From the IMG/VR virus record IMGVR_UViG_2974637922_000001, positions 32,001-96,000 of that record: 64,000 nucleotides of DNA; one strand, written 5' to 3'. Below, piece after piece: positions 3,679-54,601 of the stretch (position 1 is its first letter; each line of letters starts with the position of its first letter). Source of the stretch: a virus. Lineage: Duplodnaviria; Caudoviricetes. The position numbers and the translations under genes were made by a program. A model generated the notes under the pieces. It searched no databases, had not been told where the DNA came from, and saw nothing but the letters and a program-made list of their open reading frames with translations.

Positions 3679-3874
3679 AGAAGATCTAATGATCAACTGG
3701 AAACAGAAGATGATGAAACATTGCACCCACGATTGGGAAAAGCAACTATTACGTGAAGGTGCCACATCATCTGTGACAGCAATGGGTATAATGTCACTAA
3801 AGAAACGATACAAAAAGATTATGGGTATTGATGATGATCCAAAGCCACCTGTAGTTCAGTATGCTTCATATTGA
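3668..3874 (+). CDS. Hypothetical protein
   Basis: ORF track; stop inside R3. Confidence 0.7.
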   Translation: MMTEEDLMINWKQKMMKHCTHDWEKQLLREGATSSVTAMGIMSLKKRYKKIMGIDDDPKPPVVQYASY

Positions 3875-3954
3875 CACTTGAATAACTGGCACAAGGGGGG
3901 TAGGCACCCCCCTTTTTTGTGCCATAATACAGAGGTAAACAACGGGAACCACCC
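3870..3954 (+). promoter_or_regulatory. Repeat R3 with terminator-like hairpin
   Basis: ATTGACACTTGAATAACTGGCACA; GGGGGGT-AGGC-ACCCCCC-TTTTTT; TGCCATAAT. Confidence 0.85.
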
Positions 3955-4332
3955 ATGCAACTACCTACCCCCCTGCTAAACAGAGGTTACACTATAAACG
4001 GCAATACTGCCAGTAGGGTATATCAGCACGGTTTTAGAGTAGAGTTAGAGGCACTAACTACCCTAAACATGCCCATAGGTTTACTAAACTATATTATAAA
4101 CGAAAACGATATAGAGTGCCCCTGGGCACCAGCAGATGTAGAGCAGTTTGATACTATCTGGCACTATACTGTTACAGATATTAGAGGTGAGATACTAGAT
4201 AATACATATGGTTTTACAACCTATTATATGTTTGACTCTATTAGAGAGATACATAACGCACTAACAGATATTACAGTAGATAATGCGTTAGATATTATGA
4301 ATGGCACATCTGAACTATATGCCACCTGCTAA
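3955..4332 (+). CDS. Hypothetical lysine-free protein with skewed k-mer content
   Basis: Single-gene cassette between R3 and R4. Confidence 0.8.
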   Translation: MQLPTPLLNRGYTINGNTASRVYQHGFRVELEALTTLNMPIGLLNYIINENDIECPWAPADVEQFDTIWHYTVTDIRGEILDNTYGFTTYYMFDSIREIHNALTDITVDNALDIMNGTSELYATC

Positions 4333-4399
4333 ACTGGCACAGGGGGGCTAGGCACAGCCCCCTACACCTGCTATACTAAACACATACCAAACCAATACT
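4318..4399 (+). promoter_or_regulatory. Repeat R4
   Basis: TATGCCACCTGCTAAACTGGCACA; TAGGCA...TGCTATACT. Confidence 0.85.
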
Positions 4400-4576
4400 A
4401 TGTTTGAATTGATGTTATTGGCGGGGGTGGCATTCACACCTCTCCAAGGATCAGAAACTATCAATCAATTTTGTTCTGAAGTTGTTGGTATCCCATACGC
4501 CAGTGATAACTTCACTGATGAAGAATGGGAACGTTTTACTTATTGTCGCGAATCTATCAAGGTACCTCAAAAATGA
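4400..4576 (+). CDS. Small protein, 58 aa (MFELMLLAGV..IPYASDNFTDEEWERF..)
   Basis: Hand-translated; ATG at the standard position after R4; ATGA overlap with next gene. Confidence 0.75.
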   Translation: MFELMLLAGVAFTPLQGSETINQFCSEVVGIPYASDNFTDEEWERFTYCRESIKVPQK

Positions 4577-21009: not shown

Positions 21010-21378
21010 ATGAAAACGTTTCGTTACTCATCCGCCGATCTTAACCAGGGCATGGCTAACCTACTCATCAGCCTCGAGCACGGGGTGGCAGCTGATAGGG
21101 TACAGGTTAACCCTATCGAGGTGGGTACCCCAGTAGTTTCATACGTAACCGATACCACTCGCCGCGGTACTCACGTTATCGTAGGGTTCGCTCGTGGCAC
21201 CACTACCGAGGCTAACCCATGGGGCACCGAGGGGCTTAAAACCGTTTACCAGGTGGCATGGGTAGCTGAGGCAGTGAGGTTCATACCTGAGGCAGTTGTA
21301 CCTATCGTGAGTACCACCCGGGCTAACGAAGAGATGGCACAGGCTCTGATGGTAGCAGCCCTGGCACCCCGATACTGA
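21010..21378 (+). CDS. Hypothetical protein with skewed k-mer content
   Basis: Follows R24. Confidence 0.8.
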   Translation: MKTFRYSSADLNQGMANLLISLEHGVAADRVQVNPIEVGTPVVSYVTDTTRRGTHVIVGFARGTTTEANPWGTEGLKTVYQVAWVAEAVRFIPEAVVPIVSTTRANEEMAQALMVAALAPRY

Positions 21379-21440
21379 TAACCGATATACAGGGGGGCTC
21401 TCAGTAGCCCCCTCTATACAACCCCCTATACAGAACACCA

Positions 21441-21602
21441 ATGAACAGCCAACAGCATCTCGACTCTCTTGTATCAGAACTAGCCCAGGGCGGTTGCCAA
21501 GAGATCGCAGTTATCAAGCTCCCCTCTATGGCGAAGAGGAACCACAAGACCCTGTTCAGCCCACCCAACCGTAAAGGACCTAGAGCCAAGGTTTCAGCCT
21601 GA
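21441..21602 (+). CDS. Small protein, 53 aa
   Basis: Hand-translated MNSQQHLDSLVSEL.. Confidence 0.55.
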   Translation: MNSQQHLDSLVSELAQGGCQEIAVIKLPSMAKRNHKTLFSPPNRKGPRAKVSA

Positions 21603-36300: not shown

Positions 36301-39300
36301 ATTACTGAGCACTTCTTTAGTCCAGCTGAAGAACTATATTACCTACCAGATACAACTTTAGCTAACAACCTCAAATCTCCTATCGAGATTCAACCAGTTG
36401 TTGATTATAGAGGTATAACAACTTCTACAATGCCTGACAGAGTGTATGCCATCAAGAGGGATCTAAATGTATTCCAACTAGCACCAACTGCATCTGATGC
36501 ACTTGCTGGTCAAGCAATTGTTATCACTGGGTTTGGTACTGGTATTTCCCATAGATTGGGTATGATGAAGAAGCTAGAGAAGACTATCATTACCATTGAT
36601 GGTGTTATCCAGTCTCCTATTACTAGCGCACTCAAAACATTCAATCTAGATGCACCACTAGGTTTTGATGACGAATATGCAGTTCTAACTGGTATTGGTA
36701 CTATTCGTGTTGGTGATCTATTTCTAATTGATGAGGAGTACTTAAAGATTGATAATGTTGGATTATCTACATCACAGACTGGTCCTATTAGTAATACTGG
36801 TACTATTCCTCTAATTGAAATTAGTAGAGGTGTTGTTGGTTCTTCCGCAACTAGTCATACTAGTGGTTCTGATCTCGATCTATACAGAGGTAGCTTCAAT
36901 ATTGTTGAGAGTGACGTTGTATTCACCGAAGCACCTGCTGGTAGGGGTGAGATTAATATCAATGAGTCCAACCTAGTACAGGTTAACTCATCATTCCAAG
37001 GTAGAACATTCCTACAGAGAGAGTATGATCAGATTGCACTATTTGATGATATCAGTGATTTGTTCAATGGTTCAGATTATGAGTTCAACATTACTTCCGC
37101 TGGTAGTACTATTGGTGAGATTGAGAATGGTTCTGGTGTTCTAACCATCAACGATATCTACCAAACTCCAACTACCGATAACAACGCAGGTAACAACTAT
37201 TTCTATAGTTATGGAGCACAAACTGGTATCAATACTCTAACCTTTACTGGTATTACTTCCACTAATGGTCAGAGAGTTGAGTCTAGATTTGATATCAATC
37301 AGAACCAGATTCCTCGCGGTGGTGTTATCGTATCACTAGGTTCTACACCTGGTTTGGGATACGCCCCACTCTATGGAGCAAAGATAACTCCAGTAGTTAC
37401 TGGTGGTGTTATTACTGATATTGTATCGACCAATAGAGTTGGTTTTACAACTGATGTTCTTTGGGCAGACTATGATAACGAAACTGGTGACTTGGTTGTT
37501 TCTGGTATTGGATCGGCACTAACCACACAGTTCAACATCACAGATGCCGACTATCGTAACACCTCCGGCGTCCTAATTATCACGAGCGCAACTTCTCTAA
37601 TATCTGCTGGTATCAACCCAGGTGATATTATGTATCTGAGAGGTATGGACTTCTCCTGTACTTCAGGTGGAGCACCTGCCACACTTACATACCCAGACCA
37701 AGACCCAGTATACGCTGTGGATAGGATTGTAGATGAATTTAGGTTCTCAGTGAACGCTGGAATATCTACTATTCCACATACTTATGTTTCTGGTGGTACC
37801 TGGCAAAAGTATTCACCATTCCAGTTTGGAAGGGAACAGATTAACCCCAAACAGGTTTATCTAAATGGTTTGGAGTTTGATTGTACCAATAGTCCATTCA
37901 TCACTACCAATATCTTCCCTGATAGTTTCGAGTCAGCATCTTTTGTTACTCGTGATGATGATGCACACTTCAGACTAAACGTTGGTATCGCAAGTTTCAC
38001 ACACGACTATGTTGGTAGTGGAATCTTTGGTCAGTATATTGAAAACAACCCAGGTTCTGGTTATATCGATAGAGTTTCTATCGCAGTTACTGATCCCAAC
38101 CACTCTGGAACACCTGCAGAGATTGTGGGTATCCCAACTGCTGGTGGTGAGTTATCATTCACAATTATTGGTGGTGGTTCTGGATATAACCAACCAACCA
38201 CAGATACCTTTGCTCCTGATCCAGCATACTTTAACCTTCCAGTTATTGGTGTATCTAGGAGAAATATTGGATTCACAACTATCACTGGTAAGAATCTCTT
38301 TGTAACTGTTGAGGTATCAGCAGCAACCACCACGGCAATCGGTCGTAGTGAGTTCTTTGAAGTTAGTGGTTACCAAATCACTAACCAGGGTTATGGTTTT
38401 GAAGAAGGTGATGTTATTGAGGTTGTTGGTATTCCTACTGATAAGAATCTATCCCAACCAATTGAACCCTTCCAACTCACAGTTCTAGACACCTTCACCG
38501 ATAACTTCTCCGCCTGGAACTTCGGTGAAACTGATTATATTGATAGTATCAAGACTCTACAGGATGGTTCAAGACTTAACTTCCCACTTTCATACAAAGG
38601 TGAGGAACTATCCTTCGAATCAAATCCCTCCAATGAAGACTCTGCGGCAATTGATTTAGACGCTATCCTCCTCATCTATGTGAATACAGTACTACAAGTA
38701 CCTGGTGTAAGTTATGAGTTTACTGGTGGTAACACCTTTACATTCTCACAACCACCATTCCCACAGGATGATGTTGATATTTACTTCTATAGAGGTAAGA
38801 GGAATATTGATAGTACAGTTATTACTGAAATTGATGAATCTATTAGACCTGGTGATCAGTTACAACTTGTTAAAAACAATAAGTACAATGACAATGTATT
38901 CATTGACCTAACCAGAACACAGGACCTTAGAACAGTCACAGAGATTGCTTCTTCTGACACAGTTAGAACTAATATCTACTTTGGTAACAAAGACTTAGAT
39001 ACTCTAAGAGAAAGGCAAGTCGGTTGGGAAAAACAGAAGAGAGATATCTTCATCTATGGTGAACCAGCACCTAAGACTAGAGATAGTCTAGAACCTGTTA
39101 TTGTACCAACAGCGGCAATCATCAGAGATACCTCCAAATCACAAACAGAACTCTTTGTTAGTAACTCTGAGATATTTGTTTATGAAGAAGATGTTCCTGG
39201 TTCTAGTATTGTTCTAACCAATATCAGTGGTGAGATCTATAGACCAGTTGAGTATAAGTACAATCCACCAGTACTATTCGAACCCGCGTCAATACGCGCG

Positions 39301-52345: not shown

Positions 52346-53146
52346 GTGGGTGAATATTTTTATCATGAGATCATCAAGAGAACTGTTGTCGGTTTCGGCA
52401 ATCTCTTCAATGGTCTTACTATCCAAAAGGTAGACAAGAAGCAAAACGTCATTAACGTGATGAAGGTGCCTCTTGCATATGGTCCTACCCAGAAGTTTCT
52501 GGCAAAGATTACTCAGCAGGGTGAGTTAAACCAACCTACTGAGATTACTTTACCACGTATGTCTTTTGAGATGAACTCTCTTGCATATGACGGATCGCGG
52601 AAGACCGCACCCACTCAGATGTTTAAGACACTAGATAACGGGGAGACACTTAAAAAGGTTTATCTTCCAGTTCCATATAATATTGGTTTTGAACTTAATA
52701 TTATGACCAAGTTGAATGAGGATGCTCTACAACTTGTCGAACAAATTCTTCCATATTTCCAACCTTCCTTTAATATTACTGTCGATCTAGTTGATCAGAT
52801 TGGTGAGAAGAGAGATATCCCTGTGGTACTCGACTCCATCAACTTCACTGACGACTATGAAGGAGACTTCACAGGTAGACGTATTCTAATCTATACTCTA
52901 TCATTCACTGCCAAATCCTACATGTTTGGACCTGTCAGTGAATCTGGGGATGGTCTTATTCGTAAGGTTCAGGTTGATTATCATACTTCAACCGAGAGGG
53001 ATTCACCTCGTGAGGTTCGTTACACAGCCACACCAGACCCAGTTGATGCCGAACCCACTGATGACTTTGGGTTTAGTGAAGAAACTGTAGTATACTTTGA
53101 TTCTAAAGTATACAGTCCAACTCAAGGTGAGGATTACACTCCATGA
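52346..53146 (+). CDS. gp15: Tail sheath stabiliser / tail terminator
   Basis: YFYHEII..FG.LFN, VPLAYGP.QKFL, LPRMSFE, EQILPYFQP. Confidence 0.95.
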   Translation: MGEYFYHEIIKRTVVGFGNLFNGLTIQKVDKKQNVINVMKVPLAYGPTQKFLAKITQQGELNQPTEITLPRMSFEMNSLAYDGSRKTAPTQMFKTLDNGETLKKVYLPVPYNIGFELNIMTKLNEDALQLVEQILPYFQPSFNITVDLVDQIGEKRDIPVVLDSINFTDDYEGDFTGRRILIYTLSFTAKSYMFGPVSESGDGLIRKVQVDYHTSTERDSPREVRYTATPDPVDAEPTDDFGFSEETVVYFDSKVYSPTQGEDYTP

Positions 53147-53568
53147 GCTTTGAATCAATAGATGATGCACTGGATATTGAATCCAGTATTGTGAAAAAAG
53201 AAGAAGAGGTGGAGGTTACTCCTACCAATTCTAAAGAGAAACCATCTACTCCCCAAACTGAACAAGATTACAACTATAGTAGGGGACAACTCTATTCTCT
53301 CATTGAGAAGGGACAAGAGGCGGTTAACAACGCATTAGAACTCGCCAACGAAGGTTCTAGTGCTAGATCATATGAGGTTGTTGGTGGTCTTATTAAGAAT
53401 GTCGCAGACGTTACTGATAAACTACTAGATCTCCAAAAGAAGGTTAAGGATCTGGATGAAATTTCAGTTACTAATAACCAAACCAATGTAACCAACAATT
53501 CGGTATTCGTCGGATCAACTACTGAACTCCAGAAGATGTTGAAAGAAGGATTGTTGAATAACGATTAA
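53143..53568 (+). CDS. gp16: Terminase small subunit
   Basis: DYNYSRGQLYSLIEKG, RSYEV, FVGSTTELQK. Confidence 0.92.
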   Translation: MSFESIDDALDIESSIVKKEEEVEVTPTNSKEKPSTPQTEQDYNYSRGQLYSLIEKGQEAVNNALELANEGSSARSYEVVGGLIKNVADVTDKLLDLQKKVKDLDEISVTNNQTNVTNNSVFVGSTTELQKMLKEGLLNND

Positions 53569-53573
53569 CTACT

Positions 53574-53987
53574 ATGGCTTACGAAGAAGAAAATCAGTGT
53601 AACTCTACACCTGAGGGTGAAGATTGCCCTAAGCACAAGAAGAAGTGCTGCAATTCTGAGGAAAAGAAACGCAAAAAGGGGATGTACGGTCTCCAGGATG
53701 AGGATAGTGAAGGCGATGAGTCCTCACAAGAGAATGGTGGCATGCCTCAGGATAGTGCCAATGAGGAAAGACAACTTAACCCAGACACTGACCTGAAGGA
53801 CATGTCCAGTGATAGTAAGAAGAGGGCTATGGATTCTTTCCGTGAAAGAAGTTCTGAAGCTAAGAAAAGAAAATCAGATAAAGATAAGAAGGATGAATTG
53901 GCAACTGAACGCATGACAAAGGGCATAAGGTTCTTTGACAAACAGGGTTCAGGTTATATTAAAAAAGGTAAAAAGAGTTACGACTAA
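53574..53987 (+). CDS. Highly charged hypothetical protein
   Basis: ORF track; CN.TPEG.DCPKH, GIRFFDKQGSGY. Confidence 0.75.
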   Translation: MAYEEENQCNSTPEGEDCPKHKKKCCNSEEKKRKKGMYGLQDEDSEGDESSQENGGMPQDSANEERQLNPDTDLKDMSSDSKKRAMDSFRERSSEAKKRKSDKDKKDELATERMTKGIRFFDKQGSGYIKKGKKSYD

Positions 53988-53989
53988 CC

Positions 53990-54601
53990 ATGACACTAAT
54001 TAACGAACATAATCTTGGAGCTTGGAAAGCTTTAAACCCCCAAGACAAAAGACTACAAGCATTAACACTCTCAGAACTATTGGAGAATGTCGATCCAACT
54101 AGCGTAGATTTCAGTAGTATTACCTTTAAGGGGCGTACAGACGGTCTACTCGGAGATGGTCTCGATTGTGCTGAAAGTATTGGTTTTGTTGTATTTGATT
54201 GTGTATGTCTGTTCCTAGGAGCAGCAACACTAAGAGCTTCAGCCACTGCTGAGGTAGCCGAAGATATGGCTAAAGCTGCAGAACCTGTTGTTAACCAACT
54301 AACACAGTATATTAGAACCATTTCTGATTCAGCATCATCAACATATGATGTTGCTTATGCTGTGTTTAAGGTAATCTCTACCATCTACAGTGGAGGTGCT
54401 TTAGGTGCTGTTTGTGGTGTGTTCTTCACGTCCCTAACTTGGTACAATGCTATTCTCTATGGAATGACTGCTGTTGGTACTATTATGGCTGCTTTGGCAA
54501 CTGATGGTGCTGCTGAAATTGGTATTATTGTTGTGGAAATAGCAACAGCTGGTTTCCTAATTTCCGACAGTGTTGCCTGCTCTAAAGCTTGCAACTACTG
54601 A
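53990..54601 (+). CDS. Hydrophobic Ala/Cys-rich protein, possibly membrane-associated
   Basis: Several hydrophobic segments. Confidence 0.75.
   Translation: MTLINEHNLGAWKALNPQDKRLQALTLSELLENVDPTSVDFSSITFKGRTDGLLGDGLDCAESIGFVVFDCVCLFLGAATLRASATAEVAEDMAKAAEPVVNQLTQYIRTISDSASSTYDVAYAVFKVISTIYSGGALGAVCGVFFTSLTWYNAILYGMTAVGTIMAALATDGAAEIGIIVVEIATAGFLISDSVACSKACNY

Follow-up and report, generated by a model that had tools for sequence, protein, structure and literature searches.

A cyanophage cassette gene shares a strand-biased, palindrome-poor DNA style with two HNH endonuclease cassettes

Why should a small phage gene lack eight trinucleotides and every Lys codon, and do these gaps tell us about the protein that it encodes or about the DNA that carries it? 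The coding sequence in question occupies positions 3955..4332 on the + strand (ATG to TAA, 378 nt, 125 amino acids, no Lys, phrog_5752) of a 64-kb window, by which we mean the whole stretch of DNA analyzed here, which corresponds to bases 32001-96000 of an assembly of 196.8 kb. Over 3 kb around the gene, the DNA is 96-98% identical to Synechococcus phage ACG-2014f, a T4-like cyanomyovirus (Kyanoviridae, Atlauavirus), and the neighborhood is a run of small same-strand ORFs without known function that adjoins a dCMP deaminase gene. The original prediction read the missing words as strand-symmetric avoidance selected on double-stranded DNA and the gene as an anti-restriction or anti-defense factor, with the absence of Lys as protection from tRNA-Lys nucleases.

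The hand counts on which that prediction was built (the missing trinucleotides, four TC dinucleotides, 125 amino acids, no Lys) are correct. Eight trinucleotides are missing from the gene, namely AAG, CTT, GGA, TCC, TTC, GTC, TCG, and CCG, the last of which had not been listed. The 378 nt contain 4 TC, 57 TA, and 24 GA; on the coding strand, TC is depleted 5-fold, TA is enriched 1.6-fold, and GA is normal. The depletion of TC extends to all three codon phases, with counts of 2, 1, and 1. When 378-nt windows are moved across the 196.8-kb genome, 11 of 6226 have a TC count of 4 or fewer, all of them in this gene or at the psbA-psbD locus described below, and no window reaches a TA count of 57. 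We compared the gene with a same-protein null, in which the amino acids are fixed and the codons are drawn from genome usage. The null gives 18.1±3.1 TC where 4 are observed, 38.1±3.6 TA where 57 are observed, and 1.2±1.0 missing trinucleotides where 8 are observed (all P<2e-4); amino acid composition alone is therefore no explanation of the TC, TA, or missing-word values. When the 221 ORFs of the phage are ranked individually, the gene is second lowest for TC (z of -4.8) and highest for TA (z of +5.2). Our literature search returned nothing on TC depletion in phage cassettes.

The symmetry that the original prediction saw in these words dissolves on closer counting. AAG is missing because the protein has no Lys (1.0 expected, P=0.28), and TCC, TTC, GTC, and TCG are missing because TC itself is depleted; the reverse complements of the missing TC words are present (GAA 3, GAC 1, CGA 2). 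Because the TC depletion is one-stranded, it cannot stem from selection on double-stranded DNA. The view that chance, or the composition of a short, acidic protein poor in Ser and Lys, accounts for the missing words can point to the absence of AAG and to the fact that two missing reverse-complement trinucleotide pairs, of any identity, are common (234 of 3113 windows). We nevertheless regard it as extremely improbable, since the same-protein nulls reject it for TC, TA, missing trinucleotides, and palindromes alike, and the joint absence of AAG/CTT and GGA/TCC occurs nowhere else in the genome. Taken singly, AAG and CTT are both missing from 7 of 9338 windows, every one of which lies over this gene, and GGA and TCC are both missing only from this gene, the psbA-psbD locus, and genome positions 53047-53510 (window 21047-21510). 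The last of these lies in the most G+C-rich kilobase of the window (0.53).

The codon use that had been called unusual is so only in part. ATA accounts for 6 of 12 Ile codons here and for 11% in the genome, a clear departure, and GAG is modestly enriched (6 of 8, with 47% in the genome), but CTA (33% of Leu), like AGA (43% of Arg), is the normal top codon of the phage. A dependence on phage tRNAs was considered and dropped, the genome having tRNA-Arg(TCT) and tRNA-Asn(GTT) only. The two tRNA genes lie at genome positions 126211-126569, and the gene, for its part, favors AGA for Arg and AAC for Asn.

The double-stranded component of the prediction does survive in another form, through short palindromes. 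We counted the 4-bp reverse-complement words other than TATA and ATAT, which together occur in 17 copies in the gene. Only 3 palindromes are present, compared with 17.6±3.7 in dinucleotide shuffles, 17.1 under a Markov-2 model, 14.8±3.0 under synonymous permutation, which keeps both the protein and the codon usage, and 17.2 in codon-order shuffles (all P<0.001). Depletion thus stands against codon-matched nulls, on both the dinucleotide and the palindrome counts, and selection on double-stranded DNA is supported by the palindromes (3 where 15-18 are expected) and not by the trinucleotide pairs. The effect is specific to this class of word: in the gene, palindromes fall to 0.18 of expectation, as opposed to 1.01 for mirror words, 0.96 for complement-direct words, and 0.79 for direct words. 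Control word sets give 0.8-1.3 of expectation, and random 14-word sets are never as low as the palindromes. Counts of a few individual restriction sites are uninformative over only 378 nt. Dyads with gaps of at least 3 are not depleted, so the palindrome loss is not hairpin avoidance, and we rejected avoidance of hairpins or mRNA structure as its cause.

Palindromes are avoided throughout this genome. The mean ORF ratio under synonymous permutation is 0.64 (sd 0.18, 221 ORFs), and relative to Markov-2 expectation GGCC stands at 0.15, GCGC at 0.47, GTAC at 0.55, and CTAG at 1.01. The gene, with a ratio of 0.21, is fourth lowest of the 221 ORFs, at least five others lie at 0.17-0.30, and about 2% of 378-nt genome windows have 3 or fewer palindromes in raw count. 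The palindrome purge of the gene is therefore an extreme of a genome-wide trend and is not unique; it is the coupling of the purge to the TC/TA bias that is the unique part. The ORFs at genome positions 172289-172672, 38621-38866, 175268-175756, and 125667-125975 are nearly as purged and have normal TC.

The gene sits in a discrete cassette. Together with both flanking repeat modules, the unit spans 3886..4399 on the + strand. Upstream, a dyad with a T-run at 3887..3924 (+ strand, -26.4 kcal/mol, z of -4.5) forms the left arm of the first module; it contains a terminator-like stem at 3893-3914 followed by TTTTTT and looks like a candidate terminator for the preceding gene. A predicted σ70-type early promoter of the gene overlaps it at 3901..3928 (+ strand). 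By consensus match, its -35 element TAGGCA sits in the dyad loop and is separated by a 16-nt spacer from TGn-CATAAT, at 3923-3928, ahead of the ATG at 3955. Downstream, a second dyad at 4335..4373 (+ strand, -19.3 kcal/mol, z of -1.25) forms the left arm of the next module. It lacks a T-run and folds more weakly than the upstream dyad. The next cassette gene, 4400-4576, has its promoter-like site at 4349..4377 (+ strand), which consists of TAGGCA, a 17-nt spacer, and a predicted TGn-TATACT at 4372-4377. This second module precedes the same gene in isolates Syn7803US4 (US4) and C25 and in a metagenomic contig (L003). The dyad, ACTGGCACA-G6-loop-C6, occurs in 8 copies in the 64-kb window, all on the + strand, where 0.39 would be expected, and it has 14 matches in ACG-2014f isolate C16; related repeat modules are present in several other cyanomyovirus genera.

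Close relatives differ in whether they have the cassette. The segment is present in the window and in isolate C25, and US4 (KJ019105) lacks exactly 449 nt (roughly 3923-4371). At this place US4 has one hybrid repeat module, in which the same dyad is followed at once by the next gene's -10 box and leader, and the start of that gene is offset by 449 nt between the cassette carriers and US4. In contig L003, the same cassette follows another upstream gene and carries an allele with 82% amino acid identity. The low TC and palindrome counts hold for the whole cassette unit, which has 2.9 TC per 378 nt and 5 palindromes where 21.7 are expected. We considered that the style derives from the repeats, or that the gene was born from them, and rejected the idea because the repeats have 10 TC and 24 TA per 378 nt and are not TA-rich. 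Immediately upstream, at window 3868-3886, C25 and US4 have an additional 405-nt gene of ordinary composition, Syn7803C25_51, placed after the gene that ends at 3874 and before the dyad. Here it is absent, and from the junction it seems to have been cleanly deleted at a short TGA repeat.

This is the arrangement known as promoter-early stem-loop (PeSL) cassettes from T4-type coliphage, vibriophage, and related T4-like phages (Arbiol et al. 2010, PMC2839356; Comeau et al. 2014, PMC4122927). As in those cassettes, a stem-loop lies directly 5' of a σ70-like early promoter, followed by a leader, a Shine-Dalgarno sequence, and the start codon; many copies in the same orientation populate a hyperplastic region with small ORFan genes between them; and entire cassettes are present in one close relative and absent from another, with breakpoints that fall within the repeats. 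The dyad here differs in having a sequence of its own. The 2014 description of PeSLs makes no mention of cyanophages (PMC4122927). A cassette of roughly 450 nt would then have been gained or lost by recombination between PeSL-like stem-loop and promoter repeats. To our knowledge, the PeSL description does not include any special nucleotide style for the cargo.

The same style is found in other mobile DNA. Just one other place in the genome has the same TC/TA values, a 1204-nt stretch between psbA and psbD, at genome positions 168690-169893 (locus L004 1690-2893), outside the window. In composition, it stands out more strongly than any other island of the genome. It comprises 410 nt of noncoding DNA, a 54-amino-acid ORF, and a 210-amino-acid HNH-like ORF related to an HNH-type endonuclease gene of phage S-H34. 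TC occurs at 4.4 per 378 nt over the whole cassette and at 0-5.5 in all of its parts, the noncoding 410 nt having 5.5, and neither TCC nor GATC occurs in the 1204 nt. In the flanking genes TC is 29-34 per 378 nt, and the borders are sharp at psbD and at orf76, a small ORF next to psbA. The deviations of the gene and of this cassette from the genome correlate with r = 0.82 for dinucleotides and r = 0.66 for trinucleotides, where the null reaches at most 0.79 and 0.47. Most of the psbA-psbD stretch is missing from sister isolates, and six of them match one 77-nt piece only, at another place. This piece (locus L004 1773-1850, in the noncoding leader of the HNH cassette) has 85% identity to an unannotated site near 155-159 kb in six ACG-2014f genomes and includes the TGTTATACT box. 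It may be a shared promoter or small-RNA module.

A third island is present in isolate C25 (KJ019152.1 116881-117892, locus L009 16881-17892), between gp45 and gp44, and is absent from this genome. Its leader ORF is homologous to the 54-amino-acid ORF and its promoter region is likewise homologous (79-89% nucleotide identity), while its HNH protein, of 197 amino acids, is different from the one between psbA and psbD. It, too, is TC-poor, TA-rich, and palindrome-poor. Relative to dinucleotide shuffles, the psbA-psbD cassette has 5 palindromes where 50.4 are expected and the C25 island has 13 where 48.1 are expected, so that the palindrome z values are -4.0 for the gene, -8.2 for the psbA-psbD cassette, and -5.8 for the C25 island. 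When the three islands are pooled, TCC falls to 0.03 of the genome rate, GTC to 0.05, and TCA and TTC to 0.10 each; ATA, TAG, TAC, and CCC are raised about 2-fold, GAG and AGA are also up, and GAA is at 0.86. The DNA of the gene thus belongs to a compositional class that is common to two HNH homing cassettes. There is no sequence similarity between the cassette of the gene and the HNH cassettes, and the case for a common pool is consequently made from composition alone.

The style is absent from the flanking genes and from the other cassette genes and homing endonuclease genes (HEGs) that we examined, whose palindrome ratios are 0.66-0.77 and whose TC, as counted on the + strand, is ordinary. 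We therefore rejected the idea that it is a general trait of HEGs or cassette genes, C25_51, C25_102, C25_263, S-CAM7 53634-54332, and the S-H34 HNH gene being ordinary or nearly so. Scans of S-CAM7, Syn19, S-CAM22, S-RIM12, S-H34, and ACG-2014f C16 gave borderline islands only, several of them inside large structural genes (the five-genome cyanomyovirus scan covered all but one end of about 7 kb), and our viral, metagenome, and genome scans yielded one contig only and no donor genome with this style. We note that S-CAM7 53634-54332 on the minus strand (locus L077 1035-1733) and KJ019152.1 54497-55207 are reverse-oriented ORFs in same-strand early regions. Read on their own coding strands, they have a mild TC-poor, TA-rich bias with ordinary palindromes, and one of them is annotated as a cox1-i7 protein, likely an intron-type endonuclease.

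Turning to the encoded protein, it is the product of a real gene. The homologues at 75-96% identity keep the reading frame open, and dN/dS against the 82%-identical L003 allele is 0.40, which indicates a constrained gene. The protein matches phrog_5752, a family of unknown function, over its full length (residues 1-125 to profile positions 1-125, E of 1.8e-86), and a Pfam search gives no family at E≤1. Relatives are few: alleles of 75-96% identity in ACG-2014f isolates and marine metagenomes, and one 135-amino-acid relative, P0010, at 31%. The latter is the one true distant relative added by a profile search of 1.84 billion proteins; P0009 and P0011, from the same search, are repeat proteins that we regard as spurious, and a search seeded with P0010 gave no additional relatives. 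Scans of IMG/VR with the family alignment, P0010, the 54-amino-acid leader ORF, and the 210-amino-acid HNH protein found nothing, a genome-contig scan gave no hit, and a metagenome scan gave one contig. The AlphaFold model is poor, with a pLDDT of 54; a structural search with it peaks at a Z of 4.7, which is noise level, and the structural neighbors in the Atlas (DUF4304, TM 0.53) are too weak to be of use.

With these results, the functional reading can be weighed. It holds that the gene is an anti-restriction or anti-defense factor, for instance a DNA mimic, that is expressed first, has had its own DNA purged, and does without Lys against tRNA-Lys nucleases. The predicted early-type promoter, the small acidic product (pI 4.2, net charge -12), the reality of the palindrome purge, and the accessory distribution within a hyperplastic early region all agree with it. 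Yet the protein has neither a Pfam match nor a usable structural one, its sole PHROG is without known function, and its acidity is just at the 10th percentile among the small ORFs of the phage. The same style marks HNH endonuclease cassettes and noncoding DNA, and a 0.4-kb gene free of sites hardly matters for how many targets a 197-kb genome offers. Nor does the Lys argument hold, because Lys is found in close and distant relatives (K21 and K30 in P0004-P0006, K110 in P0017, and four Lys in P0010). The lack of Lys is thus not a conserved trait, and here, where two other ORFs of the 221 in this phage share it, it is incidental to an acidic composition. DNA mimics such as Ocr of T7, ArdA, and Arn of T4 are likewise small and acidic, and the present protein resembles them in its predicted early expression; it differs in that no sequence or profile similarity to them is detected and the low-confidence model gives no fold match above noise, and its net charge is modest next to theirs. 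We consider the functional reading quite improbable, and the family and fold searches lend the originally proposed anti-defense protein no link. Since the style recurs in HNH cassettes and in noncoding DNA, we take it as the mark of a mobile DNA pool and not of protein function; the purge belongs to the DNA vehicle and not to the encoded protein. The role of the protein is most likely that of an early accessory factor directed at the host or at a competitor.

A different possibility is that a strand-specific process acting on cassette transcripts or single-stranded DNA keeps the signature in place, the palindrome purge being a separate and ordinary phage trait; for example, a nuclease or base modifier that attacks TC/UC might be avoided, or mutation might be biased in a context-specific way during transfer. 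TC is low in noncoding DNA as well as in every codon phase, with GA normal, and the enriched ATA, CTA, TAC, TAT, and TAG mirror the depleted ATC, CTC, TCC, TCT, and TCG. The signature also appears to persist in another phage background. The L003 allele, which differs from the gene by 47 nt, has 6 TC and 59 TA, and over 123 aligned codons it keeps 58 TA where random substitution would leave 47 (P=0.0003). Its TC count of 6 compares with 9.7 in the same simulation (P=0.10), which is naive in that it ignores protein constraint, and its palindromes are less purged, at 9 where 17.4 are expected. Against this reading, no candidate enzyme was identified here, and TC is normal in other early genes that these repeat promoters drive. 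The lack of any TT enrichment (rho of 0.79) argues against C-to-T deamination at TC, a mechanism that we rejected for this reason. We hold a strand-specific process of this kind to be unlikely.

The reading that we prefer, at about even confidence, is that the gene is an accessory early gene from a distinct mobile-DNA pool under stronger avoidance of double-stranded-DNA nucleases, put in its place by repeats. Such a pool would have evolved under stronger sequence-specific avoidance of these nucleases, a restriction-type selection, than the carrier genome, and would have a strand bias of its own, from TC to TA on the sense strand. The gene would have been brought to its present site through repeat-mediated recombination. 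Weighing against this reading are the avoidance of palindromes throughout the genome, the failure of our scans to turn up a donor, the weaker purge of the L003 allele, and the lack of sequence similarity to the HNH cassettes. The signature itself may come from selection acting on the cassette in place or from the inherited style of a donor.

One extension of the mobile-pool reading, which we offer as improbable, is that these are "restriction-proof" selfish cassettes in which the palindrome purge is selected at the level of the cassette itself. An insert of 0.4-1.2 kb hardly alters the restriction targets of a 200-kb phage, and by this argument a near-total purge must reflect cassette-level selection. 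When a carrier is chopped by nucleases of the host or of a rival phage, a cassette free of sites would stay whole as a fragment, and it could then be rescued into a co-infecting relative via conserved flanks, the PeSL-like repeats in the one case and homing sites for the HNH units in the other. The loss of TC from the coding strand would correspond to a second, TC-specific attack on single-stranded DNA or RNA during transfer.

The avoidance of restriction sites, that is, of short palindromes, is established in phage genomes, and the present case agrees with it in that palindromes of 4-6 bp are below compositional expectation both genome-wide (ratio about 0.7) and in the gene. It departs from the usual picture in three respects: three small mobile cassettes are purged several times more strongly than the genome that carries them; nearly all 4-bp palindromes are affected at once except TATA and ATAT, with CTAG depleted less; and the purge is coupled here to a one-strand TC/TA bias. 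Free-standing HNH homing cassettes are likewise familiar from T4-like phages and cyanophages, examples being the psbA-associated endonuclease of S-PM2 and SegF, SegG, and MobE. The gene has the same DNA style and the same accessory, indel-type distribution as the two ACG-2014f cassettes. In contrast to them, it lacks a nuclease motif; it is not similar to either of them, and it moves with PeSL-like repeats, with no evident homing site.

If this account is correct, the flexible genes of ocean cyanophages do not form a single homogeneous pool and include a subset of cassettes with a DNA "dialect" of its own, in which sense-strand TC is almost nil, TA is in excess, and palindromes are few. The dialect crosses gene families, being found on one ORFan and on two different HNH endonucleases, and it could serve as an inexpensive compositional sign that a piece of phage DNA is selfish or has moved recently. 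It also leads to a testable idea, that nuclease avoidance operates at the level of the single cassette rather than of the whole virus, and the strand-specific bias may point to a TC-directed nuclease or modifier in the arms race between cyanophages and their hosts. It carries a warning as well: a purged DNA sequence is no evidence for the function of the encoded protein.

A last observation concerns the most conserved part of the coding sequence, at window 4157-4175. Here, CTGGCAC is directly joined to TATACT, and the same junction is found in the L003 allele. The two pieces correspond to the first seven bases of the dyad motif and to a -10 box of the module, with no dyad in between; the junction may be due to chance, may be an internal promoter, or may be a recombination scar.
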